From: a virus
Reading direction: 5' to 3' (one strand)
Length of the DNA: 64,000 nucleotides
Virus record (IMG/VR): IMGVR_UViG_3300046832_000578
The notes beneath the pieces were generated by a model, which saw only the letters and a program-made list of their open reading frames with translations, did no database searches and was not told the DNA's origin. The position numbers and the translations under genes are program-made. This document shows positions 4,668-55,605 of the stretch, piece by piece. Numbering within the stretch: the stretch's first letter is position 1; every line of letters starts with the position of its first letter.

Positions 4668-5228
4668 ATGGCTCAATACGTAAACAACGCTGATTTTCTT
4701 GCAGCTATCTCAGAGTATCGACTGAAAGTTCAACACGCTAAAGAAAACAATTTACCGAAACCACAAATTAGTAATTATATCGGTGAGTGTATTCTAAAAA
4801 TAGCAACCCATCTTTCTTATAAACCAAATTTTATAAACTACTCGTATCGTGATGATATGATTAGCGATGGTATTGAAAATTGCATTCAGTATATTGATAA
4901 CTTCGATCCCTCAAAATCTAACAATCCATTTGCTTATTTCACCCAAATTATATGGTATGCTTTTCTTCGCAGGATTGCCAAAGAAAAGAAGCAGAGTTAT
5001 ATTAAAGGTAAGTTGATTCAAGATATGCCATTTGAGATGTTTGAAGTCCAAGAGGGTGATGATAAAGATTATCATAATGCATATATGGATTTTATGCAAC
5101 AGAATCATACTTTCGATGATACATTTATAGAACGCAAAAAAGCGAAGAAAAAGAAACAAACGAATTTAGATGACTTTATAGGTGAAGATGATGACAGTGA
5201 GCAGATCGATAAGAGACTTGATTCGTGA
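4668..5228 (+). CDS. gp55: Late transcription sigma factor gp55
   Basis: YVNN.DFL, YIGECILKIA.HLS.KPNF.NY, MISDGIENC, NPFAYFTQI..AFLRRI.KEKKQ. Confidence 0.95.
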   Translation: MAQYVNNADFLAAISEYRLKVQHAKENNLPKPQISNYIGECILKIATHLSYKPNFINYSYRDDMISDGIENCIQYIDNFDPSKSNNPFAYFTQIIWYAFLRRIAKEKKQSYIKGKLIQDMPFEMFEVQEGDDKDYHNAYMDFMQQNHTFDDTFIERKKAKKKKQTNLDDFIGEDDDSEQIDKRLDS

Positions 5229-9537: not shown

Positions 9538-9711
9538 ATGGAAAATCAATGGAGTGGTTTTGATGACTTTGAATTGGCATGTTTGTGTGCTGACTACGGA
9601 TACGAAGATGCACTTGAGATTGTAGAAATCTTGCCTGTGAAATTAGGTAATCGTGCACAAATTGAAACACTGCTAACCCAGCACGAATTTGAAATGGCAT
9701 TCGGAGAATAA
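9538..9711 (+). CDS. Small acidic hypothetical protein
   Basis: GGAG SD, directly after early promoter. Confidence 0.6.
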   Translation: MENQWSGFDDFELACLCADYGYEDALEIVEILPVKLGNRAQIETLLTQHEFEMAFGE

Positions 9712-9718
9712 ATATATT

Positions 9719-11902
9719 ATGGAAATGAAAGCATCTGATCTATCCGCAAGACTTCTTGCCACTGAAAATCTTTCAGTGATTCGTGCAAGAACTCGCACTG
9801 CATCTTTCGACATCAAGTCACGAGTGTTGACTCTTCCGATGTGGAAAGACATGACTCCCGAAATTGAAGACATGCTCATTGGGCACGAAGTTGGTCACGC
9901 ATTATATACGCTAGACCAGTATACAGACCCAATTAAAGAAAACCCTAAGATTATGGGTTACATGAATGTTCTCGAAGATGTTCGTATCGAGAAACTAATC
10001 AAACGCAAGTATCCAGGATTGCGTAAACGCATGAATGAAGGATACCGACAACTCAACGATCGTGATTTCTTTGGCACTAAACAAGTCCAAAACTTTGCAG
10101 ATCTTCTCTTGATTGACAAAATCAATTTATACTTCAAAGCAGGATTCTCTTGTGGTGTTACATTCACACCTGATGAAAAGATATTTGTGAATCGTGCAGA
10201 GCGTACTGAAACAGTTGAAGAAGTTATTGAATTGGCACAAGATGTTTATGCATATGCCAAACAACAGGCTGAAGAGCGCAAGCAACGCATGAAAGAAGAA
10301 AACCCTCAAGACTTCGAAGATGAAGACGAGGAAGATCCAATTTATGCTGACTTTGATGATTTGGATATGGATGGTGATTGGGATGAACAGGAAGACGATG
10401 AACCTGATTTGAAACCAACATCTTCACCGAAGAATCAAAACGATGAACGCAAACAGGAAGACGATGAACCTGATTTGGAATCTCAAACAGATCGTGCCTT
10501 CCAAAGTAAACTTGAGGATCTTGCAGACGAAAATACAGAGTACAAGTATTGGAAGTTTGATACTGCACCTAAAGATATTATTGTTGGGTACAAACAAATT
10601 CTAAATGAAACTAAATCACCTGAACTCTGGTCTCAAGAAGAAACAGATGGTAGATATCGTTATGTCAATAAAGAAGACATGCAACGAATCTTTGAGGCAC
10701 AATCAAAAGATTTTGATAACTTCAAGACAGAATCAATTCGTACTGTAAATTATCTTGTCAAAGAATTTGAGATGAAAAAGTCTGCACAATTGTATAAGCG
10801 TGCACAAGTATCAAAGATTGGCTCTCTTGACATGAAGAAACTCTATGCATACAAATTGCAAGATGATTTGTTCAAGCGTGTCACAACGATTCCTAAAGGT
10901 AAGAATCATGGTATGATTCTACTTGTTGATTGGTCTGGTTCGATGAGTGAAGTCTTACAAGATACATTGAAACAAGTTATTAACTTGGCGATGTTCTGTA
11001 ATCGTGTTCAGATTCCATATCGTGTCTTTGCATTCACTGATGGATACAAAGATAAAGCCAATAAAGTTGCTGCAGAGGATTGGGCTGCACACTGCGAAAA
11101 ACTAAAAGAAATTTACAACGCAAAGGTAGAACAAGGCGATATCATTAAGATCGAGGGTTTCCATCTTCTTGAATTGTTTAGCAACAAAATGACTACCAGC
11201 GAGTTTAATAACATGGCTCGTCGTGTATTGGATTATCGTTTCCAATGGAATGAAGGATACAGCACTGGTGGAACACCATTGAATGAAGCATTGGTCTGGT
11301 GTTATCAGAACATTGGTGATTACATGAAGAACAATTCTATTGAGAAGATGACATTCATTACTCTTACTGATGGCGAGGGTGCATCATTGAGTGGTTATGG
11401 ACATCGTTATCTTGAAGAATCTAGAACTGAAATTATTGGCAGTGAATACAAGCGTATCAAAACCAAACATCTTATGCGTGATGAAGTTACTCAGAAAACA
11501 TATGAGATGAGTCGTTACTCAAACTTCCAAGCAGAAATGATTTTGCGTATGATGAAAGATCGTTATGGTATTGCATTGGTAGGATTCCATATCTGTCGTA
11601 ACACTCGTCGTGATTTGTCTGGTGTTCTGAATGCTAATCTACCATCTTTCCGTGGCGATCAATTCTCAGTCATTGAAACATGGAGAAAAGATTTCCGTGC
11701 ACAAGGGTTTGCATCTATCAAAAACACTGGTCGTGATGACTTGTTTATTATCCCACAATCTTCTACCAGAATTGAAGAGGGTGAGTTGGATGTAAAGGCA
11801 GATGCAAATGCAAAAGCGATTGCAAGAAACTTTGGCAAATTCTTGAATGTCAAGAAGACTAGCCGAGTCCTACTCAATCGTTTCGTGGCTCTAGTAGCGT
11901 AA
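9719..11902 (+). CDS. CobT-like protein: N-terminal HExxH metallopeptidase-like domain + C-terminal vWA domain
   Basis: GHEVGHAL, NVLEDVRIE, acidic linker, MIDAS DWSGSM, GGTPL, TLTDGE; paired with MoxR-type ATPase. Confidence 0.85.
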   Translation: MEMKASDLSARLLATENLSVIRARTRTASFDIKSRVLTLPMWKDMTPEIEDMLIGHEVGHALYTLDQYTDPIKENPKIMGYMNVLEDVRIEKLIKRKYPGLRKRMNEGYRQLNDRDFFGTKQVQNFADLLLIDKINLYFKAGFSCGVTFTPDEKIFVNRAERTETVEEVIELAQDVYAYAKQQAEERKQRMKEENPQDFEDEDEEDPIYADFDDLDMDGDWDEQEDDEPDLKPTSSPKNQNDERKQEDDEPDLESQTDRAFQSKLEDLADENTEYKYWKFDTAPKDIIVGYKQILNETKSPELWSQEETDGRYRYVNKEDMQRIFEAQSKDFDNFKTESIRTVNYLVKEFEMKKSAQLYKRAQVSKIGSLDMKKLYAYKLQDDLFKRVTTIPKGKNHGMILLVDWSGSMSEVLQDTLKQVINLAMFCNRVQIPYRVFAFTDGYKDKANKVAAEDWAAHCEKLKEIYNAKVEQGDIIKIEGFHLLELFSNKMTTSEFNNMARRVLDYRFQWNEGYSTGGTPLNEALVWCYQNIGDYMKNNSIEKMTFITLTDGEGASLSGYGHRYLEESRTEIIGSEYKRIKTKHLMRDEVTQKTYEMSRYSNFQAEMILRMMKDRYGIALVGFHICRNTRRDLSGVLNANLPSFRGDQFSVIETWRKDFRAQGFASIKNTGRDDLFIIPQSSTRIEEGELDVKADANAKAIARNFGKFLNVKKTSRVLLNRFVALVA

Positions 11903-11913
11903 GTTGTTGTTTT

Positions 11914-11992
11914 TACAGGGGAAACTAATCCCCTGTGACGTGTAGGGTTATTGCAAATAATGCTTGTCTTTAATTGCGATTTAGGTAATAAT
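11914..11992 (+). promoter_or_regulatory. Palindrome + early promoter cassette, copy B
   Basis: TACAGGGGA..TCCCCTGTG, TGTAGGGTTATT, then TTGTCT(11964)-TTAATTGC..-AATAAT. Confidence 0.7.
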
Positions 11993-12026
11993 TATGGATG
12001 TAATACTTGATTATGGAGAAAATGTG

Positions 12027-13187
12027 ATGGCAAAAACCGATACCCTGTTCCGTGAACAGTTTGAAGCAAAGATGCACGAATTGCACCCAGATGTGCAAAC
12101 TCGTGGTACTGTATCCCGTCCAGAATTGCTGGCTGTGATGCAAGCATTAAAGACTGAGAAATATCCTCTTTGGCTTATGAAAGATAAAGTTGGTCGTGGT
12201 CTATATGCAATTGATGGTGGTACTCATGCAGTTGTTGGAAACACTGCACTGAAACCTAAGGTTGAAACAAAACAAGAATCATTTATTGTGGACTACACTA
12301 ACACTGAAGCACTCATTCCAAAGAAAGATCCGAACTTTGTACCATTCGGTAACTACAATGATTTGGAACATATTATCAAGTCAGGTATCTTTTATCCTGC
12401 ATACATTTCTGGTCCAACTGGGAATGGCAAGTCAACGATGGTCGAACAAATTTGTGCAAAGCATAAGCGTCCATTGATTCGTGTTAATCTTAACATGATG
12501 ACTGACGAAGAACAACTCATCGGTTCCAAAACATTGGAAAATGGTAATGTGGAGATTATCGAGGGTCCAGTTCTTATCGCCATGCGCAATGGTACTGCAC
12601 TCTTGCTTGATGAGATTGATGCTGGCTCTGCCAATACTCTGCTCTGCTTGCAACCAATTCTTGAGGGTAAACCATACTACTTCAAACTCAAGAATGAGAT
12701 GATTGTTCCAGCTGAAGGATTCAACGTCTTTGCCACTGCCAATACTAAGGGTAAGGGTTCAGATGATGGTCGTTACATCGGTACAAACATTTTGAACGAA
12801 GCATTCTTGGAGCGATTCGCTGTGACATTCGAACAGGAATATCCTAATGCGAAGATCGAAGTTAAGATTATTAAGAATCTCATGGAAACTTATTCATGCT
12901 TAAATGAACAGTTTGCAGAGACACTCGTGAAGTGGGCGGATGCAATTCGTCGTACTTTCGAGGATGGTGGTGTGGATGAAACTATTACTACTCGTCGTAT
13001 GATTCACATTGTTCGTGCTTATGCAATCTTTAAGACCGAACAGAAAGCAGTTGAGTTATGTTGCAATCGTTTCGATGCTGCAACAAAGACTGCATTCATC
13101 GACTTGTATGATAAAGTTGCAAATCCGCAACCAGAGGTTGTCGTGGAGCAACCAGTTGCAACACCAGAAGACGAGGTTCCATTTTAA
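12027..13187 (+). CDS. CobS/MoxR-like AAA+ ATPase
   Basis: FVPFGN, GPTGNGKS, LLLDEID, ATANTKGKGSDDGRY.GTN.LNEAFLERF, TRR; typical of T4-like 'cobS'. Confidence 0.9.
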   Translation: MAKTDTLFREQFEAKMHELHPDVQTRGTVSRPELLAVMQALKTEKYPLWLMKDKVGRGLYAIDGGTHAVVGNTALKPKVETKQESFIVDYTNTEALIPKKDPNFVPFGNYNDLEHIIKSGIFYPAYISGPTGNGKSTMVEQICAKHKRPLIRVNLNMMTDEEQLIGSKTLENGNVEIIEGPVLIAMRNGTALLLDEIDAGSANTLLCLQPILEGKPYYFKLKNEMIVPAEGFNVFATANTKGKGSDDGRYIGTNILNEAFLERFAVTFEQEYPNAKIEVKIIKNLMETYSCLNEQFAETLVKWADAIRRTFEDGGVDETITTRRMIHIVRAYAIFKTEQKAVELCCNRFDAATKTAFIDLYDKVANPQPEVVVEQPVATPEDEVPF

Positions 13188-15251: not shown

Positions 15252-15301
15252 TTTCAGAGAGGATATAATTCCTCTCTATTCTATATTATGTGGAGATTTA
15301 T

Positions 15302-16255
15302 ATGATTGAAAGTCGTGATGAGCAGTTCTTGTGGGTTGAGAAATATCGCCCACAAAAGATTGATGATTGTATTCTTCCTGAGTCTTTAAAGAAGACATTC
15401 AAGGATTATGTTGCACAAGGTGAGTTGCCTCACTTTCTATTGTGTGGCACGGCAGGTGTAGGTAAAACTACCATCGCCAAAGCATTGTGTAACGAAATCG
15501 GTGCAGAGTATGTAATTCTTAATGGTTCAGATACTGGTGGTCATATCGATACACTCCGTACTACTATTAAGGGTTTTGCTACATCTGTGTCGCTAACTGA
15601 TGCTAAGAAAGTTATTATCTTAGACGAAGCAGATTATCTACAAGCAAACTCCACCCAACCAGCACTCCGTAATTACATGGAAGAATTCTCTGCCAATTGC
15701 AGATTTATCTTCACTGCTAATTATAAGAATCGTATCATTGAACCGATTCATTCTCGCTGTGCTGTTATTGAATTTAAGATTGACTCTAAAGAGAAGCAAG
15801 AGATTGCTGCAGCATTCTTTAAACGAGCAACTGCTATTCTCAAACAAGAAAACATTGAGTTCGATCCTAAAGTTGTAGCAGAACTAATCACCAAACACTT
15901 TCCTGATTATCGTCGTATTCTTAATGAGATGCAACGATACTCTGTGTCAGGTAAAATCGACTCAGGCATTCTCGTCAATATGTCTGAAGAATCTTTCAAA
16001 GGTTTAATTAAACTTATGAAGGACAAAGACTTTACTGAAGTGCGTAAATGGGTTGCCAAAAACTCTGATGCAGATACAACTGCATTGTTTCGTGAATTGT
16101 ATGACAACGCATCCGTAAATATGGATGTGAATAGTATTCCACCAATGGTTCTTATCCTAGCAGACTATCAATACAAAGCAGCATTTGTGGCTGACCATGA
16201 ACTAAATATTATGGCAGCACTAACTGAGATTATGGCTCAGTGCAAATTCAAATGA
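15302..16255 (+). CDS. gp44: Clamp loader large subunit gp44
   Basis: LWVEKYRP, GTAGVGKTT, DEAD, Q.ALR..MEEFS.NCRFI, SRC, FPD.RR. Confidence 0.96.
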   Translation: MIESRDEQFLWVEKYRPQKIDDCILPESLKKTFKDYVAQGELPHFLLCGTAGVGKTTIAKALCNEIGAEYVILNGSDTGGHIDTLRTTIKGFATSVSLTDAKKVIILDEADYLQANSTQPALRNYMEEFSANCRFIFTANYKNRIIEPIHSRCAVIEFKIDSKEKQEIAAAFFKRATAILKQENIEFDPKVVAELITKHFPDYRRILNEMQRYSVSGKIDSGILVNMSEESFKGLIKLMKDKDFTEVRKWVAKNSDADTTALFRELYDNASVNMDVNSIPPMVLILADYQYKAAFVADHELNIMAALTEIMAQCKFK

Positions 16256-16262: not shown

Positions 16263-16583
16263 ATGGAATTTCTTATACTCTTTGCCGTACTAGTAGTGGG
16301 TATCCACTGGGGCTGGACTGCTCGTGAAGCAGTTGCTAAACGAAGAGCAGACTTTCTTTTATCTAAATTACAAGAGATAGAAGAAGATACTCCAGAAGAT
16401 ATTATCCGTATTAATATTGAAAAAGATAATGGTGTGCTCTTTGCATACTACGAACAAGATAGTCGTTTTATAGTACAAGCAAACAGTCGTGAAGAACTGG
16501 AGAATAAACTAAAAGAATTGTTTCCAGGAAAACGATTTGGTTGTTCTCCAGAAACCTTAAGAAAATGTGGCTTTATATTATGA
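16263..16583 (+). CDS. Hypothetical protein with N-terminal TM anchor
   Basis: Hydrophobic N-terminus; GAGGA SD; inserted between gp44 and gp62. Confidence 0.6.
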   Translation: MEFLILFAVLVVGIHWGWTAREAVAKRRADFLLSKLQEIEEDTPEDIIRINIEKDNGVLFAYYEQDSRFIVQANSREELENKLKELFPGKRFGCSPETLRKCGFIL

Positions 16584-16957
16584 CTCCCTTTGACTTTATT
16601 AATGCAATTAACCTAACCAAAAAGAATCTGTTCGAAGATCCACAAGCAGAGAAAGACTATCTCCCCTTTCTTGTGAACAGGGGTTTGTCTTATTTTCCCG
16701 ATACAGTCCTTTATGCCAACGAGATGAATCGTAACTCTGGCATCCCAAAAGACTGGCAATTTTCCTTTTTCCTAAATACTATACCAAAGAAAAAGAGATT
16801 CAGTAAGTGGCATAAAAAAGATGCCGATTCTGATTCCTTGACACTCGTTAAAGAGTACTTTGGTTACTCATCAGAGAAAGCATTAGAAGCATTGAGCATT
16901 CTCTCCGATGAACAGTTGGCTATGATAAAAGAAAAATTATACAAAGGTGGAAAATAA
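16580..16957 (+). CDS. gp62: Clamp loader small subunit gp62
   Basis: PFDF.NAIN, Y.PF.VNR.LSYF.DT..YANEMN, KKRFSKW, EY.GYS..KA. Confidence 0.92.
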   Translation: MTPFDFINAINLTKKNLFEDPQAEKDYLPFLVNRGLSYFPDTVLYANEMNRNSGIPKDWQFSFFLNTIPKKKRFSKWHKKDADSDSLTLVKEYFGYSSEKALEALSILSDEQLAMIKEKLYKGGK

Positions 16958-23864: not shown

Positions 23865-24433
23865 TGTTTATGTTTGATGTAGAAACGCTGGGAGTAGAAT
23901 CAACTTGTGTGATTCTCTCTGCAGCTATGGTTCATTTTGATCCAGAAAAGCGACCAACATATCAAGACTTGTTGGACAATTCATGTTTCGTAAAGTTTGA
24001 TGTGAAGGAACAACTACAACTTGGAAGAACATCATCCAAGGGCACACTTGATTGGTGGAAAGGTCAACACGAATATGTTCGTAAGGTTTCTTTGGATCCA
24101 TCTCGTGAAGATATGACTGTCGAAAATGGCTTGAATGCATTCTATAACTACATGAGTAAGTTTGCAAATGCTGATAAACAAACAATGTGGGCACGAGGTT
24201 CACTTGATCAGATGGCGATTGATTCATTGGCAGTTAGAGTTGGCATGCAAGAAATTACAGGGTATAATGTATGGAGAGATGTCAGAACTGCAGTTGATAT
24301 TCTCTACGGCACTACAAATGGATATGTAGATGTAGATCATCCTTTGTTTAAGCGACATGAAGTCATCAAACATCATCCTGTTCACGACTGTGCACTTGAT
24401 GCAATGCAACTAATGTATGGAAAAATAACTTAA
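23864..24433 (+). CDS. DEDDh 3'-5' exonuclease (DexA-like)
   Basis: FDVETLG, W.RG..D, RDVRT, H.P.HDCALD. Confidence 0.85.
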   Translation: MFMFDVETLGVESTCVILSAAMVHFDPEKRPTYQDLLDNSCFVKFDVKEQLQLGRTSSKGTLDWWKGQHEYVRKVSLDPSREDMTVENGLNAFYNYMSKFANADKQTMWARGSLDQMAIDSLAVRVGMQEITGYNVWRDVRTAVDILYGTTNGYVDVDHPLFKRHEVIKHHPVHDCALDAMQLMYGKIT

Positions 24434-26919
24434 TGGAATTTTACACAAGCGTCCATCCACTGGGCGATAAGATACTCGTTAGAGGGTACGATAAAGGAAG
24501 AGCATATCAGCGTAAGGTAGATTTCTACCCTACGCTTTTTGTCACTTCTAAGAAGCAATCTAAGTGGAAGACTTTGGATGATACATATGTTGATGAAGTA
24601 AAACCTGGAACGATTAAAGATACAAGAGAGTTTGTCAAACGCTACGAAGATGTAGAAGGTTTTGCTGTGTATGGTAATACCAATTACGCATATCAATATA
24701 TCAGCGACACTTATCAAGACGATGTCAATTGGGACATGGAACAAATCAAAGTATTCACCATTGACATTGAGACTGCCACTGAGAATGGATTCCCAGATAT
24801 CCGTAGTGCCAATGAAGAGATTCTTCTAATCACAATTAAGAATCTACAAACGAAAAACATTATCACCTTTGGCACTAAGCCATATGAAAACAAACGAGAA
24901 GATTGTCAGTATGTTTATTGTCGTGATGAACAACAACTACTAAAAGAGTTTATCATTTGGTGGCAACAGAACTATCCAGATTGTATCACTGGTTGGAATA
25001 CAGACTTCTTTGATGTGCCATATCTTATCAAACGATTGGACAGAGAACTTGGTGATTCATTCTCCAAGAAAGTTAGTCCATGGGGTTACATCAATGAACG
25101 CAAGACATTCATTAAAGGCAACGAAGAACTTCACTATGACATTCTAGGTATTTCTCAACTAGACTATCTCGAACTTTATAAAAAATATACATATACAAAG
25201 CAGGAGTCTTATCGTCTGGATTATATCGCACAAGAAGAACTTGGTGATAAGAAGAAAGAGAATCCAGGAACAGACTTTAAAGATTTCTATACAAACTATT
25301 GGGATAAGTTTGTTGAATATAACATTCACGATGTGGAGTTAGTTGATCAACTCGAAGACAAGATGCGTTTGATTGAACTGCATCTGACTATGGCATACAA
25401 TGCTAAGATTAATCCTGAAGATGTTTACTCACAAGTTCGTATGTGGGATACTATCATCTACAATCACCTGCGTAAGAAAGGTATTGTTATTCCAGCAAAG
25501 ACTTCTTCAGGTAAAGATGCACAGTTCGAAGGTGCTTTCGTTAAAGATCCAATTATCGGTATGCATAAATGGGTAGCATCCTTTGACTTAAACAGTTTGT
25601 ATCCGCACTTGATTATGCAATACAACATTAGTCCTGAGACCCTGACCAGTGAGAAACTCTCTGTCACAGTTGATAAATTGCTTAATCAAGAAGTGGATAC
25701 ATCTTATATTAAACGAAGAGATCTAACTCTGACTGCAAATGGATGGACATATCGTAAAGACATCAAAGGTTTTATGCCTGAGTTGATGGAGCATATGTAT
25801 GTTAATCGCTCCAAGTTTAAAAAACAGATGTTGAAAGTTGAACAAGAATACCAAAACGATAAGACAAAGGTTCATCTATTAAAAGATATTTCTCGTCTAA
25901 ACAATCTGCAGATGGCGATGAAGATTGCTCTTAACTCTGCTTATGGTGCGATGGGTAATCAATACTTCCGTTACTTTGATATTCGTATGGCTGAAGGTAT
26001 TACCACTTCTGGTCAGTTATCCATTCGTTGGATGGCAAACAAACTCAATGCATTCCTCAACAAAACTCTCAAGACAGAGGGTAAAGATTTCGTCATTGCC
26101 ATTGATACAGATTCGATCTATCTAACATTGGAAGATTTGATTGAGAAGGTTTGTGAAGGTAAAACTACTGAACAGAAAATCAAAACAATGGACAAGATCT
26201 GTGAAGAAGTTTTTCAACCATTTATTGATCAAGGATATGATGAACTTGCTGACTATATGAATGCGTATGGTCAGAAGATGCAAATGAAACGAGAAGTACT
26301 GGCTGACAAAGCAATCTGGACTGCCAAGAAACGATATGTTATTAATGTTCATAATTCGGAAGGAGTGCAATTTGCGAAACCTAAAATCAAAGTTATGGGT
26401 TTGGAGATGGTCAAGTCGTCTACACCTGCGGTTATTCGTGACAAACTTAGGGATTCGTTACAAGTTATTCTTGCTGGCGATCAAAAAGACCTACATACAT
26501 ATGTAACAGCATTTAAGAAAGAGTTCGATAAACTTCCAGTGCATGAAGTAGCATTTCCTCGTGGTGTGAATGGTATGAAACAGTATGCTGGTTCTCCGAT
26601 TTATACAAAGGGAACACCAATTCATGTTCGTGGTGCGTTGCTCTACAATCATCACTGTAAGCGTATGGGACTAGATAAAAAGTATCAACCAATTCGTGAT
26701 GGTGATAAGATTAAGTTTGTTTATGTTCGTACACCAAACCCTCTGCAAGAAGATGTGATTGCTTTTAGTCAGCATCTTCCAAAAGAGTTTGGACTGGAAG
26801 CATACATAGATTATGATAAACAATTTGAAAAAGTATTTCTTGATGCTCTACAGATTGTTATTCAACCACTAGGTTGGAAGACTCAAGAAGAAAGTTCATT
26901 GGAGGATTTCTTTGGCTAA
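24433..26919 (+). CDS. gp43: Family B DNA polymerase gp43
   Basis: DIET, GWN...FD, YN..D, SFDLNSLYP, K..LNS.YG, IDTDS, KKRY; uninterrupted. Confidence 0.98.
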   Translation: MEFYTSVHPLGDKILVRGYDKGRAYQRKVDFYPTLFVTSKKQSKWKTLDDTYVDEVKPGTIKDTREFVKRYEDVEGFAVYGNTNYAYQYISDTYQDDVNWDMEQIKVFTIDIETATENGFPDIRSANEEILLITIKNLQTKNIITFGTKPYENKREDCQYVYCRDEQQLLKEFIIWWQQNYPDCITGWNTDFFDVPYLIKRLDRELGDSFSKKVSPWGYINERKTFIKGNEELHYDILGISQLDYLELYKKYTYTKQESYRLDYIAQEELGDKKKENPGTDFKDFYTNYWDKFVEYNIHDVELVDQLEDKMRLIELHLTMAYNAKINPEDVYSQVRMWDTIIYNHLRKKGIVIPAKTSSGKDAQFEGAFVKDPIIGMHKWVASFDLNSLYPHLIMQYNISPETLTSEKLSVTVDKLLNQEVDTSYIKRRDLTLTANGWTYRKDIKGFMPELMEHMYVNRSKFKKQMLKVEQEYQNDKTKVHLLKDISRLNNLQMAMKIALNSAYGAMGNQYFRYFDIRMAEGITTSGQLSIRWMANKLNAFLNKTLKTEGKDFVIAIDTDSIYLTLEDLIEKVCEGKTTEQKIKTMDKICEEVFQPFIDQGYDELADYMNAYGQKMQMKREVLADKAIWTAKKRYVINVHNSEGVQFAKPKIKVMGLEMVKSSTPAVIRDKLRDSLQVILAGDQKDLHTYVTAFKKEFDKLPVHEVAFPRGVNGMKQYAGSPIYTKGTPIHVRGALLYNHHCKRMGLDKKYQPIRDGDKIKFVYVRTPNPLQEDVIAFSQHLPKEFGLEAYIDYDKQFEKVFLDALQIVIQPLGWKTQEESSLEDFFG

Positions 26920-27463
26920 TATCAGAGTAATTAAAAAAGGAATAAATGTATCCAAGATACTGAAACAATTACATCAGTATCCAGAGGATTGGGGTGCTCA
27001 GAAAAACATTGATGGTGTAGGAGATCTTGTAGACGATTGCGGATTCCCTGCAGTTGAAGCAGGTGTTCTACAGTTAGTCATGGGAGTTGTCTCATCTAAA
27101 GATCAGTATGTGGGTGATAGTGAGATGTCTGCATCAACACCTGCATATAGTCATCATACAGAAATTATTTCATTCTTAAAGAGACACTTCAAGAAATTTG
27201 ATAGGTGTGGATTCTTATCATTACCCATTGCTGGTGTCGTTGGTCAACATATTGATATTGGATCTTACTATCAAACACGAGATAGATATCATCTTGCAAT
27301 TCAAGGTGCATATGATTATACAGTTGGAGGAGAGACTGTAAGAGTAGAAGAAGGTGACTTGATTTGGTTTGATAATAAACAATCACATGGAACAAAGAAT
27401 GTTGGAGATGCTGTAAGAATTACATTTGTGTTTGATGTTCCGCATGCCAAGAACAATCCATAA
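26912..27463 (+). CDS. Asp/Asn beta-hydroxylase-like 2OG-Fe(II) oxygenase
   Basis: HID.G.YY..RDRYHL, G...WFDNK..H...N....RI.FVFD. Confidence 0.8.
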   Translation: MANIRVIKKGINVSKILKQLHQYPEDWGAQKNIDGVGDLVDDCGFPAVEAGVLQLVMGVVSSKDQYVGDSEMSASTPAYSHHTEIISFLKRHFKKFDRCGFLSLPIAGVVGQHIDIGSYYQTRDRYHLAIQGAYDYTVGGETVRVEEGDLIWFDNKQSHGTKNVGDAVRITFVFDVPHAKNNP

Positions 27464-27492
27464 TTGTCTTGCAACAAAAGTTACTGTATAAT
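27464..27492 (+). promoter_or_regulatory. sigma70-type promoter
   Basis: TTGTCT-N17-TATAAT. Confidence 0.7.
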
Positions 27493-27503
27493 AGGAGATA
27501 TAA

Positions 27504-27755
27504 ATGAAAGTTTTAAAATTTTATGCCGACTGGTGTGGTCCATGCAAAGCATTGACAAGAATTATTGAAATCGCTGGAGAGAAAGTTACAATCCCAGTTG
27601 AAAATGTAAACATTGATGAGAACATTTTTCTTGCACAAGAGTTTAAAGTTCGTTCAGTTCCGACTATGATATTGGTTGATGATACTGAAAATGAAATTAA
27701 ACGACATGTCGGTTTAGTGAATGAAGAGAAATTATTAGAATTCCTGAAAGGTTAA
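27504..27755 (+). CDS. Thioredoxin
   Basis: FYADWCGPCK, VRSVPT. Confidence 0.92.
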   Translation: MKVLKFYADWCGPCKALTRIIEIAGEKVTIPVENVNIDENIFLAQEFKVRSVPTMILVDDTENEIKRHVGLVNEEKLLEFLKG

Positions 27756-27756
27756 T

Positions 27757-28830
27757 ATGAGCATACTAGACAAAATTAAAAAGAATACAACAATCAAAGA
27801 TTCAGCAATTCTTGCTCAATCAAAATTCTTCGCTAAGAAGGACATGATTCCAACCTCAGTACCAATTATCAATGTGGCTTTATCTGGTCGTCTTGATGGT
27901 GGATTAGTTCCAGGATTGACGATGTGGGCTGGTCCAAGCAAGCACTTTAAAACTGCTTTCTCTTTGCTTATGGCAAAATCTTATTTGGACAAGTATGAAG
28001 ATGCAGCGTTATTGTTTTATGATTCTGAATTTGGTACTCCTCAGTCTTACTTTGATACCTTTGGTATTGATACTAAGCGAGTGCTTCACACTCCTGTTAC
28101 AGATGTTGAACAACTCAAGTTTGATATCATGCAGCAACTGTCAACCATCGAGCGTGGAGATCACCTCATTATCGTCATTGATTCGATAGGAAATCTCGCT
28201 TCCAAGAAAGAAGTAGAGGATGCATTGGACCAGAAAGCAGTTGCTGATATGAGTCGTGCAAAGCAGATGAAGAGTTTGTTCCGTATGGTTACACCTCATT
28301 TGTCCATGAAAGATATTCCACTTGTTGTAGTGAATCATACATATAAAGAGATTGGTCTTTATCCTAAAGACATCGTTGGTGGTGGTACTGGTTCTTACTA
28401 CTCAGCGGACAACATCTTTATTCTTGGTCGTCAGCAAGAGAAAGATGGAACTGAATTAACAGGTTACAATTTTATTATTAATGTTGAGAAGAGTCGTTAT
28501 GTTAAAGAAAAATCTAAGATACCTGTTAGCGTATCTTTTGATGGTGGTCTTAGTAAGTGGAGCGGTTTGCTTGATATTGCTCTTGAGTCCAAACATGTGG
28601 TCAAACCATCCAATGGTTGGTATTCCAAATGTGATCCAGTTACAGGAGAAGTAGAAGAAAAGAAATATCGTTTGAAAGATACTGACACTAAAGAGTTCTG
28701 GTTACCACTTCTTACAGATAAAACATTTTATGACTATGTCAAGAACAAATATTCAATGGGTCAGGGTGATATGATTAGAGCAGATGAGTTGGATAAGGCA
28801 CTTGAGGAATTGGAATTCGATGAAGAGTAA
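27757..28830 (+). CDS. uvsX: RecA-like recombinase UvsX
   Basis: GPSKHFKT, YDSEFG, IDSIGNLASKKE, DMSRAK..KSLFR, VGGG.G..YSAD. Confidence 0.96.
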   Translation: MSILDKIKKNTTIKDSAILAQSKFFAKKDMIPTSVPIINVALSGRLDGGLVPGLTMWAGPSKHFKTAFSLLMAKSYLDKYEDAALLFYDSEFGTPQSYFDTFGIDTKRVLHTPVTDVEQLKFDIMQQLSTIERGDHLIIVIDSIGNLASKKEVEDALDQKAVADMSRAKQMKSLFRMVTPHLSMKDIPLVVVNHTYKEIGLYPKDIVGGGTGSYYSADNIFILGRQQEKDGTELTGYNFIINVEKSRYVKEKSKIPVSVSFDGGLSKWSGLLDIALESKHVVKPSNGWYSKCDPVTGEVEEKKYRLKDTDTKEFWLPLLTDKTFYDYVKNKYSMGQGDMIRADELDKALEELEFDEE

Positions 28831-29152
28831 TTTACCCATAATTGTTACAGAAAACAAACACAATGGACTTCAAGCAATTAAATTGACAGAAGGTGCATTT
28901 GAGGGTATAATTTATACCTATGGGAAAGTTAGTATTGATGCAGATGAAGAGAATGATAAGATTCATCTAAAATTTGAATATGAAATTCTTGATTATGCGG
29001 ATAAAGGGTTGACAGACATGAAACCTTTTGAAGCATACATAGGTAAGATACTTGAAGGATTAATCCACGAGGGTGTCGAAGAAAATAATTTAACATACAC
29101 AGGCGGAGTTGATGAGAATAGAACAGAAGATTCTAAGCAATCTGATACATGA
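28820..29152 (+). CDS. Hypothetical protein in the gp40 syntenic position
   Basis: Between uvsX and gp41; homology not confirmed. Confidence 0.55.
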   Translation: MKSNLPIIVTENKHNGLQAIKLTEGAFEGIIYTYGKVSIDADEENDKIHLKFEYEILDYADKGLTDMKPFEAYIGKILEGLIHEGVEENNLTYTGGVDENRTEDSKQSDT

Positions 29153-30500
29153 TGAGCATTATTGTCGTAAGGTAATTCCGTTTCTAAAGAAAGAGTATTT
29201 CACAGATCGTAAAGAAGCAATCCTTACAAGTGAGATTGTTTCCTTCTTCACAAAATACAACAAACCTGCAACAAAAGAAATTCTATCTATTGAAGTTGGA
29301 AATAGAAAAGATCTTAATGACAAAGAGTTAGTTGAACTTGCCGATTATATCGGTAGTTTAAATCATGAGCCAGTTAATGAAGACTGGATGCTAGAAAACA
29401 CTGAGAAGTTTTGTAAAGATAGAGCGGTTTATAATGCGATCCTTAATTCAATTAGTATCATCGATGGGCGAGACAAAATTCATACTAAAGATGCGATACC
29501 TAGCATCCTTAGCGATGCACTCGCTGTTTCTTTTGATAATCACATCGGTCATGACTATCTGGATGACCACCTTTCGAGGTTTGATTTTTATCACAGGGTT
29601 GAAGAGAAAATTCCTTTCGACCTTGACATGTTCAACAAAATCACCAAAGGTGGACTCTCAAAGAAAACCTTAAACATCGCACTTGCTGGCACTGGTGTTG
29701 GTAAGTCATTGTTCATGTGTCACATGAGTGCTGGTTGTTTGACACAAGGTAAAAATGTTTTATACATAACTATGGAAATGGCAGAAGAAAGAATCGCTGA
29801 GAGGATTGATGCGAATCTCTTGAACCTTACCATGGATGAATTGAAAGTTATTGATAAGGATATCTTTGAATCTCGTATCGCAAAGATTACAAGTAAGACT
29901 AAAGGTAAACTAATTGTCAAAGAATATCCAACTGCAAGTGCTCACTCTGGGCACTTTCGTGCATTGCTGGAAGAATTAAAACTGAAACGAGACTTTAGAC
30001 CTGATATAATCTTCATTGATTATCTTAACATCTGTGCGAGTCAGCGAATGAAGCAAGGTGGAAGTATTAACTCTTATACATATATTAAGGCAATCGCAGA
30101 AGAGTTGAGAGGTTTGGCAGTAGAGTATAATGTGCCAATCGTTTCAGCAACTCAAACAACTCGTTCTGGGTATACAAATTCAGATCCAGGACTAGAAGAT
30201 ACGAGTGAATCATTTGGTTTGCCAGCGACCGCTGACTTCATGTTTGCTTTGGTCAGCAATGAAGAATTAGAAGCGTTAAATCAAATCCTTGTAAAACAAT
30301 TAAAGAATCGTTACAACGATCCTAGTTTTTACAAACGATTTGTGATTGGAATTGATAGAGCAAAGATGAAATTGTATGACACAGAAGCATCTGCTCAAGT
30401 TAATATAAGTGACTCTGGTCAAGATGATGAGCCAGTGTTTGATAAGAGTAGTTTTGGTCGCAGACAAAAAGCAGAATCATTCGAGGGATTTAAGTTTTAG
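29112..30500 (+). CDS. gp41: Replicative helicase gp41 (DnaB-like)
   Basis: AGTGVGKS, TMEMAEE.IAERIDAN, DYLNIC, SATQTTR, SESFGLP.TAD, QLKNRY.D. Confidence 0.96.
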   Translation: MRIEQKILSNLIHDEHYCRKVIPFLKKEYFTDRKEAILTSEIVSFFTKYNKPATKEILSIEVGNRKDLNDKELVELADYIGSLNHEPVNEDWMLENTEKFCKDRAVYNAILNSISIIDGRDKIHTKDAIPSILSDALAVSFDNHIGHDYLDDHLSRFDFYHRVEEKIPFDLDMFNKITKGGLSKKTLNIALAGTGVGKSLFMCHMSAGCLTQGKNVLYITMEMAEERIAERIDANLLNLTMDELKVIDKDIFESRIAKITSKTKGKLIVKEYPTASAHSGHFRALLEELKLKRDFRPDIIFIDYLNICASQRMKQGGSINSYTYIKAIAEELRGLAVEYNVPIVSATQTTRSGYTNSDPGLEDTSESFGLPATADFMFALVSNEELEALNQILVKQLKNRYNDPSFYKRFVIGIDRAKMKLYDTEASAQVNISDSGQDDEPVFDKSSFGRRQKAESFEGFKF

Positions 30501-30509
30501 GAGAAAGAT

Positions 30510-31823
30510 ATGGTAAAAGTTATTGTAGCAAAACAGAAACATGATATGACTCATATGTTGGGACAGTTCCCTGATGAGTCGCATTATGATCATCTTATCG
30601 AGGAAGATACAGATGTATACATGCCAGAGATTCCAGGACATCCAGAGATGACATTCTCTGAAGAGAGGATTGTTCTGAAGTTTCGTAAGAATTATTTTAC
30701 AAAAGAACAACAAGACCAAGCATACATTGGACTTCGTGAAGCTGCAACTGAGACGCAGAATCGTGGACTTGCAGCTGGACCAAGAGCAGAGAAGTTAGGT
30801 AATCGTGAATGGGTCACTGAGTATGAATATGACATCGTTGATTACTTCAGTAATCCCAAAGCCAATCTATTTGGTGAAGATCCAATTGAAGCAATTCGTC
30901 AGGCACATAAGAACAAGAAGCCATCTCCGTCTAATCGTAATAATGTTTGGGGTATTTCTACTGTAAAGAAAGACAACTTCGTCTTTGAAGACTGGGTTGA
31001 AGCAACAAGAAAACTTTCTGAGAATGAAATGCGTGCAGAAGCAAAACGAGTTGCTGAGAAATATATCTGTGCAACAACCTATGCCAATGGTGTGTTCTCT
31101 GGTATTGCTGGATGGTTCGATCGTTATCCTCGCATTCCTTATGGTCGTGCAACATCTTATACTGCGAATCATCCAGACAAATTTGCTATGGCGTATCCAT
31201 TCCTACAGCAACTTGCACAGGGTTTTAAAGATCTGTTGCCATGGAGATATGGTAATCAGATGGAAGCAGCAAATAAAATGGATCCTCGTTTCTTAGTTCC
31301 AGAAACTCCATTCACTACTGTCACTGTGAATAGATCTTTTAGAACTGCGTGTCACTTTGATGCAGGTGACCTAACTTCTGGTCTATCAAATCTACTGACA
31401 TTATCAAACAATGGTAATTATCGTGGTTGCCATCTTGTTGCACCAGAGTATCGTGTCGCAGTAAATCCCAGACCTGGAGATCTACTTTTGATTAACAATC
31501 ATGAAGTAATGCATGGTAATACTCAGATTGAATTGCTTGATGATGTGGCAGAGAGAATTTCATTGGTTGTGTACTTCCGTGAGAAGATGCTTGAGTTAGG
31601 ATCTAAAGAGTATGAAGATTGTCGTTTTGACTTTGTTGAATCTCGCAGACTTAATAAAGAACATCCAGAACAACGACCATTGTGGAATGGTGTATCACCA
31701 TCAATGTGGGATTCTAAAGAATGGTTTGATTATCTAGAATCAAAACTAGGTACAGAAGTATTGAACAAGTATCATCCACCAAAGACTACAACTGTTAATG
31801 CACTCGAGGAGTTCTTCGGATAA
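30510..31823 (+). CDS. TET/JBP-family 2OG-Fe(II) dioxygenase (5-methylpyrimidine oxidase)
   Basis: FTTVTVN...RTACHFDAGD (HxD), PGDLLL.NNHEVMHGNT (distal His), RISLV.YFRE (2OG-binding Arg), SGIAG.FDR. Confidence 0.85.
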   Translation: MVKVIVAKQKHDMTHMLGQFPDESHYDHLIEEDTDVYMPEIPGHPEMTFSEERIVLKFRKNYFTKEQQDQAYIGLREAATETQNRGLAAGPRAEKLGNREWVTEYEYDIVDYFSNPKANLFGEDPIEAIRQAHKNKKPSPSNRNNVWGISTVKKDNFVFEDWVEATRKLSENEMRAEAKRVAEKYICATTYANGVFSGIAGWFDRYPRIPYGRATSYTANHPDKFAMAYPFLQQLAQGFKDLLPWRYGNQMEAANKMDPRFLVPETPFTTVTVNRSFRTACHFDAGDLTSGLSNLLTLSNNGNYRGCHLVAPEYRVAVNPRPGDLLLINNHEVMHGNTQIELLDDVAERISLVVYFREKMLELGSKEYEDCRFDFVESRRLNKEHPEQRPLWNGVSPSMWDSKEWFDYLESKLGTEVLNKYHPPKTTTVNALEEFFG

Positions 31824-32518
31824 TGTGTGCCGTAATTGGAACAATCATTCAGAATCCTTCAACAAAGGATTTTGAAAATCTACTTCGTGTATTCCATGAG
31901 TCTAAGATTCGTGGAATGCATGCTACAGGAATCTCATATGTTAAGCATGGTAAAATCCATACTGAGAAACACCCAGTGCCAGCTAATAATTTTCCTTTTG
32001 ATTTGCCAGCGTATGTCAATGAAGATGGAAATCTATACCTTATTGGGCACTGCCGTTATAGCACTAGCGATCTTGAGTATAATCAGCCAATTGCTAATGA
32101 TAATCTCTCAGTAGTTCACAATGGTGTTATTACTCAAGAACTACCAGAGAAATGGAAAGAGTTGTATGGTTATGATTGTGAAACTAAAAACGATACAGAA
32201 TTAATCCTACACACAGCAGAAAATTGCATCTCTCCGTTAGTTCGTTGGAAAGATTCTAGTCTTGCAGTTTGCGAGTTGCATGTTGATAGAGTTATTCGTG
32301 CATATCGCAATGGCAAGCGTCCATTATATTTGACAACTTTCAACAATGGATGTATAATTACCTCTACTGAAAATATTCCTGCACGAGCAGGTATTGAAGG
32401 ATTTACAACTGAGTTACCTTTGAACACTTATATAACTTTTGATGATGCATTGGCTATGATGGTTGAAAAAGAAACGATAGCTGACGCAGTGGATTTCCAA
32501 CACTATGAACTTTGTTAA
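31823..32518 (+). CDS. Class II (Ntn) glutamine amidotransferase, stand-alone glutaminase domain
   Basis: N-terminal MCAVIG (Cys nucleophile), RG.HATG, GHCRYST, NQP, HNG, DTE. Confidence 0.88.
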   Translation: MCAVIGTIIQNPSTKDFENLLRVFHESKIRGMHATGISYVKHGKIHTEKHPVPANNFPFDLPAYVNEDGNLYLIGHCRYSTSDLEYNQPIANDNLSVVHNGVITQELPEKWKELYGYDCETKNDTELILHTAENCISPLVRWKDSSLAVCELHVDRVIRAYRNGKRPLYLTTFNNGCIITSTENIPARAGIEGFTTELPLNTYITFDDALAMMVEKETIADAVDFQHYELC

Positions 32519-33146
32519 TTCTACAAGAGTAGAAGAACTAATTAAAAACAGTCCAGCTGGTAAGAACACCAAGTTCTTATCGGCTGCACACTCATTGTGG
32601 TATCGCTTTCATAATTATGACAAAGCACCACCGATGACATATGAAGTAAATGGTGAAGTTGTATCTCTTATCTTTGCCACATTCAATCGTGACAACTACT
32701 CAAATCTATACGAAATCGTTACAATTGAAGGACATGAAGGTAAAGGATATGCATCCAAGTGTTGGGATGCATGGATTGATTATGCAGTCAAAGAAAGAAA
32801 GATGACTCGATTGAAAATGTCCTGCACACCATCATCTGTTACATGGCACTATAAGAATGGTTTGATTTGGTGGGCAGTAGATCCAACAGGTTCACTTCGC
32901 TCTGATCAACCATTATTCCCAACAAGAGTAGAACAGATTGCTTATCGAGATTATGCTATTGTGAATCCACTTCAAGCACTACCACCATACAAAGCAAGAG
33001 AACAATTTCGATTAGAGGGATTAGAATCCTACAAGTGGGGTGAGAAAAAGAAAGCAAAAAGCCAAGCAGCAATTGATGCAGTGGGTAAGGCATGGTTAAG
33101 AGAAGCACTAATGGAACAACCCTCTTTAGAAGAATTTTTAGTATAA
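32505..33146 (+). CDS. GNAT-family acyltransferase
   Basis: Motif A LYEIVT....EGKGYAS, then S..WHYKNG. Confidence 0.7.
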   Translation: MNFVNSTRVEELIKNSPAGKNTKFLSAAHSLWYRFHNYDKAPPMTYEVNGEVVSLIFATFNRDNYSNLYEIVTIEGHEGKGYASKCWDAWIDYAVKERKMTRLKMSCTPSSVTWHYKNGLIWWAVDPTGSLRSDQPLFPTRVEQIAYRDYAIVNPLQALPPYKAREQFRLEGLESYKWGEKKKAKSQAAIDAVGKAWLREALMEQPSLEEFLV

Positions 33147-34165
33147 TGGATTATCGTTTGCAAGAAAATCGTAAGGAAGCATTCATTCGCTGGTATGCTT
33201 GGTCGTTGAAGTATGATGACTGCGATCCTGCTGTATGGGCAACAAACTATCTGAACAATCGTTATGAACATAATGATGAGCAGAAGTTGTGGTTGTGTTG
33301 GTTGTATGGTAATACATACTATCTTCCAACTGCATGGATTCTTATGAACGAGTTTCCAGACTTTGAGTTAGCCACTGTAGATCGTATGACACAATGGAAC
33401 ACTACAAACTATAAACGATTAAGATACCAAACAGATACAAAGTGGAACAAAGGACACCTCCCTACCATGTTCGCTTCTTACCAACAATTTGTGGGAGACA
33501 AAACACAGAGAGAAAGGTTAGAAGAATATTATGGACGCAATGAAGAAGAGAACTTTAATAACCTGTGGACAGGCATTAAGTCTGGGTTGCATAAGTTTGG
33601 TCGTTATTCCACTTGGTTTTATCTTCAGCATCTTAAGCATACTGCTGGTGTCCATATCAATCCTACTTCTCTCATGTTGGATGATTATGATGGCTCTCGC
33701 TCTCATCGTAATGGATTGCTTTATGCCGTTGGACAGGAAGACTTTGTGGATAGAAAACTCACTGGAGGACATTATAGCAACCTTGAAGCACAAGCGTACG
33801 AGATTCTTTGCGAGACGAAAGCGAGATTTCCAGAACTAATTGATCAGATAGATTACTTTACCATGGAAACTTGTTTGTGTTCTTTTAAGAAGATCTTTAG
33901 AGCACATCATGGTCGTTATCTTGGATACTATCTTGATAGACAGGCAGAAGAAATTATGCAGTGTGAGAAGGATGGATGGTATGGTATTGATTGGGATGTT
34001 TTGTGGCAATCACGAGAAGAAACTATCGACTTGAGATTAGACCACAGAAGAGGAATTGATAAAGAAAGATTTTCTAGTTTTATTAATACAGGAAGACTAG
34101 AGAATTTAGAGTGGATGTTTGATGATGAGCAACCTATATTAAATGGATTGGAGATTTTTGCATGA
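33146..34165 (+). CDS. Amino-acid:DNA transferase (aGPT-PPlase2-like, HhH-glycosylase fold)
   Basis: D.DP, WL.WLYG.TY, KFGRYSTWFY.Q.L (HhH-like), ETCLC.FKK, RY.GYY.DR; context with TET and kinase. Confidence 0.75.
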   Translation: MDYRLQENRKEAFIRWYAWSLKYDDCDPAVWATNYLNNRYEHNDEQKLWLCWLYGNTYYLPTAWILMNEFPDFELATVDRMTQWNTTNYKRLRYQTDTKWNKGHLPTMFASYQQFVGDKTQRERLEEYYGRNEEENFNNLWTGIKSGLHKFGRYSTWFYLQHLKHTAGVHINPTSLMLDDYDGSRSHRNGLLYAVGQEDFVDRKLTGGHYSNLEAQAYEILCETKARFPELIDQIDYFTMETCLCSFKKIFRAHHGRYLGYYLDRQAEEIMQCEKDGWYGIDWDVLWQSREETIDLRLDHRRGIDKERFSSFINTGRLENLEWMFDDEQPILNGLEIFA

Positions 34166-34557
34166 GTTTAACAACGACAAGTTCTGTTTCTTTACCAGTA
34201 AGCATTAGTGATATGACCACTGGGAGTATAACTATATCAAACACCAGTGGTAGTTATGGAACCATTGCCATGGGTGTAATAACCGATGACTTACTAGACA
34301 AGTATGAGTTTAATAAACTAACTGTTGATCATAAAGTATCAGCACATGAACTCTTAAAGTTAAAAGATACTGTTCCAACTTATGCAGACGAGATTAAAGA
34401 AAACCTTGCTAAGAATGCATCAAGAGAATTGGTAAAGAAGATTACCTTTACAAAGAAACATGATGTTGACTCTGATGTGCATCACTTTATTGGAAGAGTC
34501 TGGGTATTTACAGAGGAAGAACTAAGAAAACTTATTGAGGAAGTGAAACATGCTTAA
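34162..34557 (+). CDS. Hypothetical protein inside modification operon
   Basis: Ser/Thr-rich N-terminus; overlaps neighbours. Confidence 0.55.
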   Translation: MSLTTTSSVSLPVSISDMTTGSITISNTSGSYGTIAMGVITDDLLDKYEFNKLTVDHKVSAHELLKLKDTVPTYADEIKENLAKNASRELVKKITFTKKHDVDSDVHHFIGRVWVFTEEELRKLIEEVKHA

Positions 34558-35158
34558 AGAAATTGTAGGAACAACTGATCAAATTTCAATTCAGATTATT
34601 CGTGGAGAACCACAGGTGCGTAAACTAATCGCTGTGGGTGGTCAACCTGGAACTGGTAAAACCACTCTATTCCGTAAGTTTATGGAGAAGTATCAATGGG
34701 AGAAAGTCGAACCTAAAAAGATGCTTCCTGCTCTATATTGTAAAGAACTAGACCTATACATTCTAGGTAAGTATGATGATGGAGAAACCTTTGCTGGTAC
34801 AGATCGTCTAAGTATGGCTGTTCAACCAGTGGCACAGGAGTTTGTTAGAGAGACCACCTCCAATATTCTATTCGAGGGAGACCGAATCTTTAATCAGTCC
34901 TTCCTAGAGTTTGCAATGGGACTTCCTAATACAGATCTTCAGGTAATTTACCTTAAAGTTCCAGATGCTATGCTAAAAGAACGCTATGCAGAACGAGGAT
35001 CCGACCAATCTGAGACTTTCCTAAAAGGTCGTGCGACTAAATATAGTAATATATTGTCTAATTTTGAACTGATGCCCTACATTACAGAGTTCGTTAATAC
35101 TAACTTAGAGGAGCAGGGAAAGGTTTTGAGTTTCTTGGAAGGACATTTCAAGAGATAA
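34550..35158 (+). CDS. P-loop kinase (5-hydroxymethylpyrimidine DNA kinase-like)
   Basis: GGQPGTGKTT, LGKY....FAGTDRLS, FEGDR, R..ERGS. Confidence 0.75.
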   Translation: MLKEIVGTTDQISIQIIRGEPQVRKLIAVGGQPGTGKTTLFRKFMEKYQWEKVEPKKMLPALYCKELDLYILGKYDDGETFAGTDRLSMAVQPVAQEFVRETTSNILFEGDRIFNQSFLEFAMGLPNTDLQVIYLKVPDAMLKERYAERGSDQSETFLKGRATKYSNILSNFELMPYITEFVNTNLEEQGKVLSFLEGHFKR

Positions 35159-55297: not shown

Positions 55298-55605
55298 TTA
55301 CCGTAACAGAAGCAGCAAAAACACAACTTAACGAAATTCTTTTGGATGAACCAACTGCCAAATTTGTAAGAGCATTTATCTCTGGTGGTGGGTGCTCTGG
55401 TTTCAATTATGGATTTACTCTCGAAGAAGGTAAAGAAGAAGATGACTTTGTTATTGATAATCTTATAGTTGATTCGATGAGTATGCAGTATTTCGATAAT
55501 GCCACGATTGACTTTACCAGTGATAAACTAAAGGGTTCACAATTTGTAATAAGTAATCCAAATGCAAAAACCACATGCGGGTGTGGTAGTTCATTTTCAG
55601 TATAG
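55294..55605 (+). CDS. A-type Fe-S carrier (IscA/ErpA, HesB family)
   Basis: GGGCSGF.Y, VD..S..Y, NPNA..TCGCGSSF. Confidence 0.93.
   Translation: MITVTEAAKTQLNEILLDEPTAKFVRAFISGGGCSGFNYGFTLEEGKEEDDFVIDNLIVDSMSMQYFDNATIDFTSDKLKGSQFVISNPNAKTTCGCGSSFSV

Follow-up and report, generated by a model that had tools for sequence, protein, structure and literature searches.

A polymerase-type C-terminal tail on the DNA hypermodification enzymes of a T4-like phage points to docking on the gp45 sliding clamp

The locus and its shared C-terminal tail

The 64,000-nucleotide stretch of viral DNA analyzed here (IMG/VR record IMGVR_UViG_3300046832_000578; "the window") is part of a T4-like myophage of about 38% G+C whose + strand carries nearly all genes (Table 1). 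Both a gp45-type sliding clamp and its cognate clamp loader are encoded within it, and the replication module also holds RegA, DNA ligase, UvsX and a gp41-type helicase. Right behind the helicase gene begins a cluster of DNA-modification genes, among them those for a TET/JBP dioxygenase, a GNAT acetyltransferase and an amino-acid:DNA transferase (ADDT). These three enzymes share an L-E-x-F tail at the C-terminus with the family-B DNA polymerase of the phage, and the same motif lies close to the end of the late sigma factor gp55. An earlier note on this DNA had quoted these peptides and proposed that they tether the enzymes to the phage clamp; the peptides are indeed present at the genes named, whose identities are supported by Pfam and PHROGs.

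Table 1. Features of the window discussed in the text, with the position of the polymerase-type tail or motif where there is one.
Feature	Position	Strand	Identification	Tail or motif (position)
gp55 late sigma factor	4668..5228	+	Sigma70_r2; matches T4 gp55, E 6e-19	TNLDDFIG (LDDFI motif), ~15 residues before the C-terminus (about 5163-5183)
737-residue protein, then MoxR/CbbQ-type AAA_5 ATPase	9689-13187 (ATPase 11994-13187)		737-residue protein without Pfam match	
gp45-type sliding clamp, 219 residues	14592..15251	+	Pfam gp45-slide_C; PHROG 223 processivity factor	
Clamp loader, gp44-like AAA+ subunit	15290-16255	+	Pfam Gp44_lid + AAA	
Clamp loader, gp62-like subunit	16541-16957	+	Pfam Phage_clamp_A	
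gp43-type family-B DNA polymerase	24433..26919	+	Pfam DNA_pol_B; PHROG 262 aligned to the end	Ends SSLEDFFG; last seven residues are the reference tail (26896-26916)
Cupin / Asp-Asn beta-hydroxylase-like protein, 183 residues	26912-27463			
Thioredoxin	27504-27755		Pfam thioredoxin domain	
gp41-type helicase	29109-30500			
TET/JBP (5mYOX) dioxygenase	30510..31823	+	Pfam Tet_JBP PF12851, 88 bits (cut-off 34.9)	Ends NALEEFFG; tail ALEEFFG (31800-31820)
Class-II glutamine amidotransferase-like protein (GATase)	31823..32518	+	Pfam GATase_6/7	
GNAT acetyltransferase	32505..33146	+	Pfam Acetyltransf_1, 26.8 bits (cut-off 20.7)	Ends PSLEEFLV; tail SLEEFLV (33123-33143)
Amino-acid:DNA transferase (ADDT/AADT/aGPT-Pplase2)	33092..34165	+	Pfam ADDT PF18724, 71 bits (cut-off 26.2)	Ends NGLEIFA; tail GLEIFA (34145-34162)
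131-residue protein and P-loop nucleotide kinase 3	34162..35158 (kinase 34550-35158)	+	Pfam Ploopntkinase3; candidate 5-hydroxymethyldeoxyuridine (5-hmdU) DNA kinase	

The clamp matches T4 gp45 (1CZD, 6DRT) and RB69 gp45 (1B77/1B8H) over its full length with E-values of about 1e-27; the homology of the polymerase to T4 and RB69 gp43 is also full-length. The ADDT match spans positions 20-230 of the 232 in the PF18724 profile. The longest open reading frame (ORF) of this gene encodes 357 residues; since its homologues have 338-339, translation probably starts close to the GNAT stop codon, some 18 codons further downstream than 33092.

To gauge how specific the tail is, we counted its occurrences. 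The pattern L[DE][DEIG]F[FLIA], which was written after the tails had been seen and whose significance is indicative only, has five matches among the 20,279 positions of the 91 window ORFs; four of these lie right at the C-terminus and one in gp55. When the census was repeated with a broader pattern on two complete relatives, G002 and G007 (242 and 241 ORFs, with TET proteins 81% and 68% identical to that of the window), the C-terminal matches were to the same four proteins, and the gp55 motif again lay close to the end. The sole additional C-terminal match was to a protein of about 240 residues that, by size and tail, we liken to the T4_baseplate hub proteins of C48C1 and DLP6; in those the Pfam profile extends to the last residue, and the C-terminus of the extra protein probably belongs to its fold. 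The peptide is thus not common among unrelated proteins of these phages, a frequency on which the earlier note had let its proposal depend. The codons that encode the tail differ among the polymerase, TET, GNAT and ADDT genes, indicating that the similarity is one of peptides and not of a copied DNA segment.

Conservation of the tail and its co-variation with the polymerase

A comparison of 80 related viral contigs showed all four tails, of polymerase, TET, GNAT and ADDT, to be retained, as the earlier note had expected of a functional peptide. In 35 related loci the polymerase ends in SLEDFF[GA], and among 120 close TET homologues almost every one ends in [SA]LE[EG]FF. The GNAT tail is [ST]LE[DE]FL in about 120 homologues and in 49 loci, and G-L-E-x-F is near-invariant in about 120 ADDT homologues, with variation at x and at the final residue. 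Throughout, L, E and F are kept as anchor residues and their neighbors vary; the gp55 motif is also kept in relatives. The GATase (71 loci), the 131-residue protein and the kinase have unrelated ends in these contigs. When TET sequences were clustered at 50% identity, a strict L-x-x-F-F type tail was found in half of the full-length representatives (14 of 28, at 40-58% overall identity) and in none of the 42 core-only representatives; the divergent tail-bearing proteins P0133 and P0127 come from contigs of only about 2 kb.

The predicted structures place the tails on what are modeled as flexible, low-confidence C-terminal extensions of TET and GNAT. In the TET alignment a variable linker is followed by the conserved tail. 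The AlphaFold2 (AF2) model of this protein has an overall predicted local distance difference test (pLDDT) score of 95 and shows coil at residues 422-431 and a short helix at 432-436, with pLDDT dropping to 73, then 56. The GNAT model scores 88 overall and declines to 81, then 62, over its last 13 residues; here a four-residue coil leads into a short terminal helix, and the evidence for a flexible linker is less clear than for TET.

We also asked where the tail is missing. The GATase, UDP-galactopyranose mutase and deoxynucleoside monophosphate (dNMP) kinase, all of families that usually act on small molecules, do not have it. In line with a further expectation of the earlier note, it is likewise absent from the TET and ADDT homologues of five phages in which no gp43 or no gp45 was found: Mycobacterium phage Mithril and Glutamicibacter phage Montesquieu, which have no gp45 match, and Synechococcus phage S-CBWM1, Pelagibacter phage HTVC112P and Nonlabens phage P12024L, in which no gp43-like polymerase was found. 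All of these homologues end in unrelated sequences. Ralstonia phage RP13, with an ADDT-like match that is weak only, has neither a gp45 match nor a tail. Short hydrophobic C-terminal peptides can serve as protease tags, and the tail might accordingly be a degron for timed proteolysis, or else a tag for assembly or oligomerization or a localization signal. Such a signal would leave its presence on the essential polymerase and on gp55 unexplained, as well as its restriction to enzymes likely to act on polymeric DNA and its loss where gp43 or gp45 was not found, and we consider an explanation of this kind very unlikely.

As a separate observation, many TET/JBP proteins of about 300 residues (P0163, P0173, P0191, P0243, P0264 and others) share a conserved end of their own, approximately ELERAK, a few residues, and then GDPLY or GDPLF, which may be a docking extension for ParB or another partner.

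The strongest and, in our view, decisive comparative evidence comes from other phage lineages, in which the enzyme tails, as read from their sequences, change together with the tail of the lineage's own polymerase. The ADDT family is also present in other phages with a gp45 match; of these gp45 matches, that in D493 alone exceeds the Pfam cut-off, those in SFP10 and VPALA being weaker. GNAT has no homologue in our collection of phage records and hence offers no cross-lineage comparison. The polymerase of Kuttervirus SFP10 has a tail of the N-L-L-S-M-M type, and both its HMUD2 5-hmdU DNA kinase and its ADDT protein end in close variants (N-L-[LM]-S-[LM]-[LM]). A seven-residue pattern for this tail is met four times in the whole SFP10 proteome, each time two to four residues from a C-terminus, the fourth being in a 70-residue PHROG 4789 protein with no Pfam match (record positions 30142-30354, - strand). 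In Vibrio phage D493, all five copies of [KR][KR]LW in 49,520 residues are the last four residues of a protein; the carriers are the polymerase, two 5-hmdU kinases (HMUD2 and HMUDK_hel), ADDT and a 99-residue homologue of PHROG 4789 (record positions 55591-55890, + strand), again with no Pfam match. The PHROG 4789 proteins are candidates for gp33-like late-transcription co-activators or other small clamp clients. In Vibrio phage VPALA, AKRLW ends ADDT, the HMUDK_hel kinase and a DNA methyltransferase, and the end of the split polymerase gene (L147:5495-5512) encodes AKR, a TAA stop at the expected Leu codon, TGG and then a TAA stop; the first stop may reflect an error in sequencing, a true truncation or read-through.

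Within the L-x-x-F-F class, the correspondence reaches further enzyme families. C48C1 has tails of the L-x-x-F-F class on its polymerase, TET and a Dam-type methylase, and in DLP6 and Cr30 a tail of the genome's own polymerase type is carried by the polymerase, TET and a TET-associated glycosyltransferase (TAGT), with the variant D-L-S-x-L-F common to the Cr30 polymerase and glycosyltransferase. (For DLP6, a genome of higher G+C, all ORFs were used, since an antisense ORF displaces the polymerase in greedy ORF picking.) When the polymerase labels were permuted over these seven genomes, only 4 of the 5040 permutations reached the observed match between polymerase and enzyme tails.

Set apart from these, a 369-residue SFP10 protein with no Pfam match, encoded near the hypermodification genes (L034:8254-9363), ends in TYKRLF, which resembles the tail type of the Vibrio phages and not that of SFP10's own polymerase.

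Peptides of this kind can also arise by chance or as part of a protein's fold, and some of the look-alikes that we met are of the latter sort. The thioredoxin of the window ends LLEFLKG and was rejected as a client, its tail lying inside the Pfam thioredoxin domain; loose matches in the T4_baseplate proteins of C48C1, DLP6 and G007 and in the SFP10 tail-tube protein were judged either fold-intrinsic or too far from the end; and the FLE..F end of the P-loop kinase of the window was not counted, as its spacing differs and the stretch lies within the Pfam domain. For the tails of the modification enzymes, this explanation is largely refuted by the census statistics, by the co-variation and its permutation test, by the conservation of the tail beyond a linker that itself varies, and by the low-confidence extensions in the AF2 models. 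It also sits poorly with the ADDT family, which carries three unrelated tail types in three lineages, and we regard it as the least probable of the alternatives considered here.

The clamp as probable partner and the proposed chemistry on thymine

The proteins known to bind the T4 clamp provided a control for the census. Among the 53,807 residues of T4, L[DE]F[LM][FY] has three matches: the C-terminus of gp43, which ends SLDFLFG; gp55, with the motif four residues before its end; and DNA ligase, where the match at residue 231 is the loop crystallized on gp45. A looser pattern adds a 115-residue ORF ending TLDFLL, which we take to be gp33 from its size and tail. As gp43, gp55, gp33 and the ligase loop are all experimentally proven gp45 binders (PMC6212786, PMC7892883), a census of this kind is specific and returns exactly the proven clients. 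The looser census also found L-E-M-M-L at residues 8-12 of a 310-residue T4 ORF (149787-150719, - strand) that adjoins the gp33-like ORF and is possibly RNase H; this match may be a further clamp contact.

The motifs seen with the T4 and RB69 clamps (1B8H, 6DRT) resemble those of the window in being short hydrophobic L..F peptides, at or near the C-terminus and on a flexible linker, and in both cases several clients share the motif for one trimeric clamp, the window polymerase and gp55 being homologous to those of T4. What differs is the register and the nature of the clients, as DNA base-modifying enzymes have not been reported as motif-bearing clients; the tails of the other lineages are quite unlike LDFLF. 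A DNA-modifying enzyme has nevertheless been named among the partners of the T4 clamp: alpha-glucosyltransferase, which is post-replicative as we propose for the window enzymes, is reported to bind gp45 (Sommer et al., 2004; confirmed in PMC13216743), although this interaction was concluded not to be the main determinant of the ratio of alpha to beta glucosylation (PMC13216743). It has no polymerase-type tail or motif in the T4 census and must therefore bind gp45 in another way. A more distant parallel is found in eukaryotes, where a clamp-binding peptide, the PIP-box, recruits DNMT1 through PCNA to newly replicated DNA. There the clamp and the position of the motif are different, and the reaction is maintenance methylation, not hypermodification.

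A shared tail implies a shared partner, which might instead be another component of the replisome, such as the single-strand-binding protein, the helicase loader or the polymerase itself. In the SFP10 and Vibrio lineages the partner of the polymerase tail is assumed by analogy, and the data prove that a partner is shared, not which one it is. However, the window polymerase is homologous to T4 and RB69 gp43, proteins that bind gp45 by their C-terminal peptide (1B8H; PMC6212786), gp55 is a known clamp client with the same motif, and the equivalent motif in T4 picks out gp45 binders only. A partner other than gp45 therefore seems improbable to us, if less so than a signal unrelated to the replisome.

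Turning to the reaction that would be brought to the clamp, the window TET/JBP protein is a probable thymine dioxygenase. It has the features of a 2-oxoglutarate/Fe(II) jelly-roll enzyme, with the HxD...H metal triad and the 2-oxoglutarate-binding Arg (of 121 sequences, all have H282 and D284 and nearly all H335 and R349), and its modeled fold matches TET2, CcTet and NgTET1 with E-values down to 6e-11. The assignment to thymine is based on gene content and on published links. No C5 (cytosine) DNA methylase was detected in six complete relatives, nor any ParB (ParB_N), for which control genomes were positive; the Pfam-scanned cluster genes had no ParB_N either. The neighbors include AADT and a P-loop kinase, and the set of TET, AADT and P-loop kinase genes has been linked to thymine oxidation and to hypermodification based on 5-hydroxymethyluracil (5hmU) (PMC13229309); a kinase, an AADT and an acetyltransferase have been shown to act on polymeric DNA (PMC8989533). 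The pathway would then run from thymine to 5hmU, phosphorylated 5hmU, an amino-acid adduct and finally the acetylated adduct.

The window resembles the loci of ParB-dependent thymine dioxygenases, in which a TET/JBP (5mYOX) gene also has GATase, P-loop kinase and AADT neighbors (PMC13229309). The co-encoded ParB-like activator that marks that subclass was found neither in the scanned cluster genes nor in the six relatives. In HTVC112P and Mithril, a ParB gene adjoins that for a short TET relative of the window protein, and it has been suggested that ParB may stabilize the association of the dioxygenase with DNA (PMC13229309); in the window, the proposed partner is the replicative clamp instead. 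The pathways of phages ViI, M6 and PaMx11 likewise use a 5-hmdU DNA kinase, an amino-acid:DNA transferase and an acetyltransferase, such as the GNAT gp48 of PaMx11, on polymeric DNA (PMC5889632, PMC8989533). Their 5hmU is incorporated as a nucleotide, whereas that of the window is probably made on the DNA by the dioxygenase. ViI belongs to the Ackermannviridae, the group of Kuttervirus SFP10.

Some other genes of the window deserve mention. The gp41-type helicase ends SF[ED]GFKF, a terminal peptide that is kept in 76 related loci, is distinct from the polymerase tail and may dock on another replisome partner. The gene for the cupin-like protein begins eight nucleotides before the polymerase stop and is kept in 30 related loci. 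The genes for the 737-residue protein and the AAA_5 ATPase sit between the gp46/47-type nuclease genes and the clamp gene.

A proposed tether and its consequences

We consider it likely that the tails of TET, GNAT and ADDT are sliding-clamp-binding motifs that tether enzymes of post-replicative thymine hypermodification to gp45. Of the earlier proposal, the conservation and specificity of the tail hold, and its co-variation with the polymerase adds to them; the binding itself is inferred. In the mechanism that we envisage, the phage loader would place gp45 on primer-template junctions of phage DNA, and each of the three peptide-binding pockets of the trimer could hold one client, so that dioxygenase, transferase and acetyltransferase would hang from the clamp by short flexible linkers. 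The tethered enzymes would be concentrated on newly made duplex near or behind the replisome and would slide along it. The enzymes may gain from a high local concentration and from scanning the DNA processively, and they could modify it before it is packaged or attacked by nucleases. The strict coupling to the fork and the self/non-self targeting that the earlier note had envisaged are plausible as conjecture, and it weighs against strict coupling that clamps persist on DNA once the fork has passed and that nicks, too, can serve as loading sites.

Several observations count against a tether of this kind. The window motif has its hydrophobic residues at positions 2, 5 and 6 of seven, a register unlike that of T4 SLDFLFG. 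Eleven of the 28 full-length TET representatives have no tail, and one of these, P0140, shares a 68-kb contig with a tail-less ADDT and kinase. The P-loop kinase of the window is also without a clear tail, though kinases of other lineages have one, and the tail of Cr30 TET is weak (GATLF). In addition, the compared genomes are not a blind sample, and it is by analogy that we assumed the polymerase tails of SFP10 and of the Vibrio lineage to bind their clamps.

The only precedent appears to be the binding of T4 alpha-glucosyltransferase to gp45; modification enzymes that are clamp clients by virtue of a motif have apparently not been published. Our search of the open-access literature on clamps or replisomes and hypermodification enzymes found no description of clamp-binding tails on such enzymes, and the two main accounts of thymidine hypermodification (PMC5889632, PMC8989533) make no mention of clamp, replisome or C-terminal tails. 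The way in which such enzymes locate phage DNA, and the reason for which phages take post-replicative routes at all, have been named as an open question (PMC13229309).

A bolder and rather doubtful possibility is that gp45 is the required DNA-loading and activating partner of ParB-less thymine dioxygenases, in the part that ParB has for the ParB-dependent subclass, and that each gp45-encoding lineage has its own tail code. Some ParB-less clade-C1 5mYOX enzymes are inactive in heterologous assays (PMC13229309), and a need for the clamp as activator would explain this. More generally, the tail may account for the failure of enzymes in heterologous or purified assays that do not contain the cognate clamp and loader, a dependence that matters for their use as tools in DNA modification and sequencing chemistry. 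As a practical rule, the tail can flag DNA-acting enzymes among unannotated phage proteins. If the bolder possibility is true, the tail code would be common to the polymerase, the late-transcription factors and every enzyme working on polymeric DNA, and unknown DNA-acting enzymes would be predictable from their last six to eight residues. For the phage, copying, transcription and packaging of the genome all take place within minutes, and in that time post-replicative hypermodification has to get to a large fraction of the target bases. A clamp-docking tail would be a simple answer, as the enzymes would travel with clamps that the phage itself puts on its DNA.

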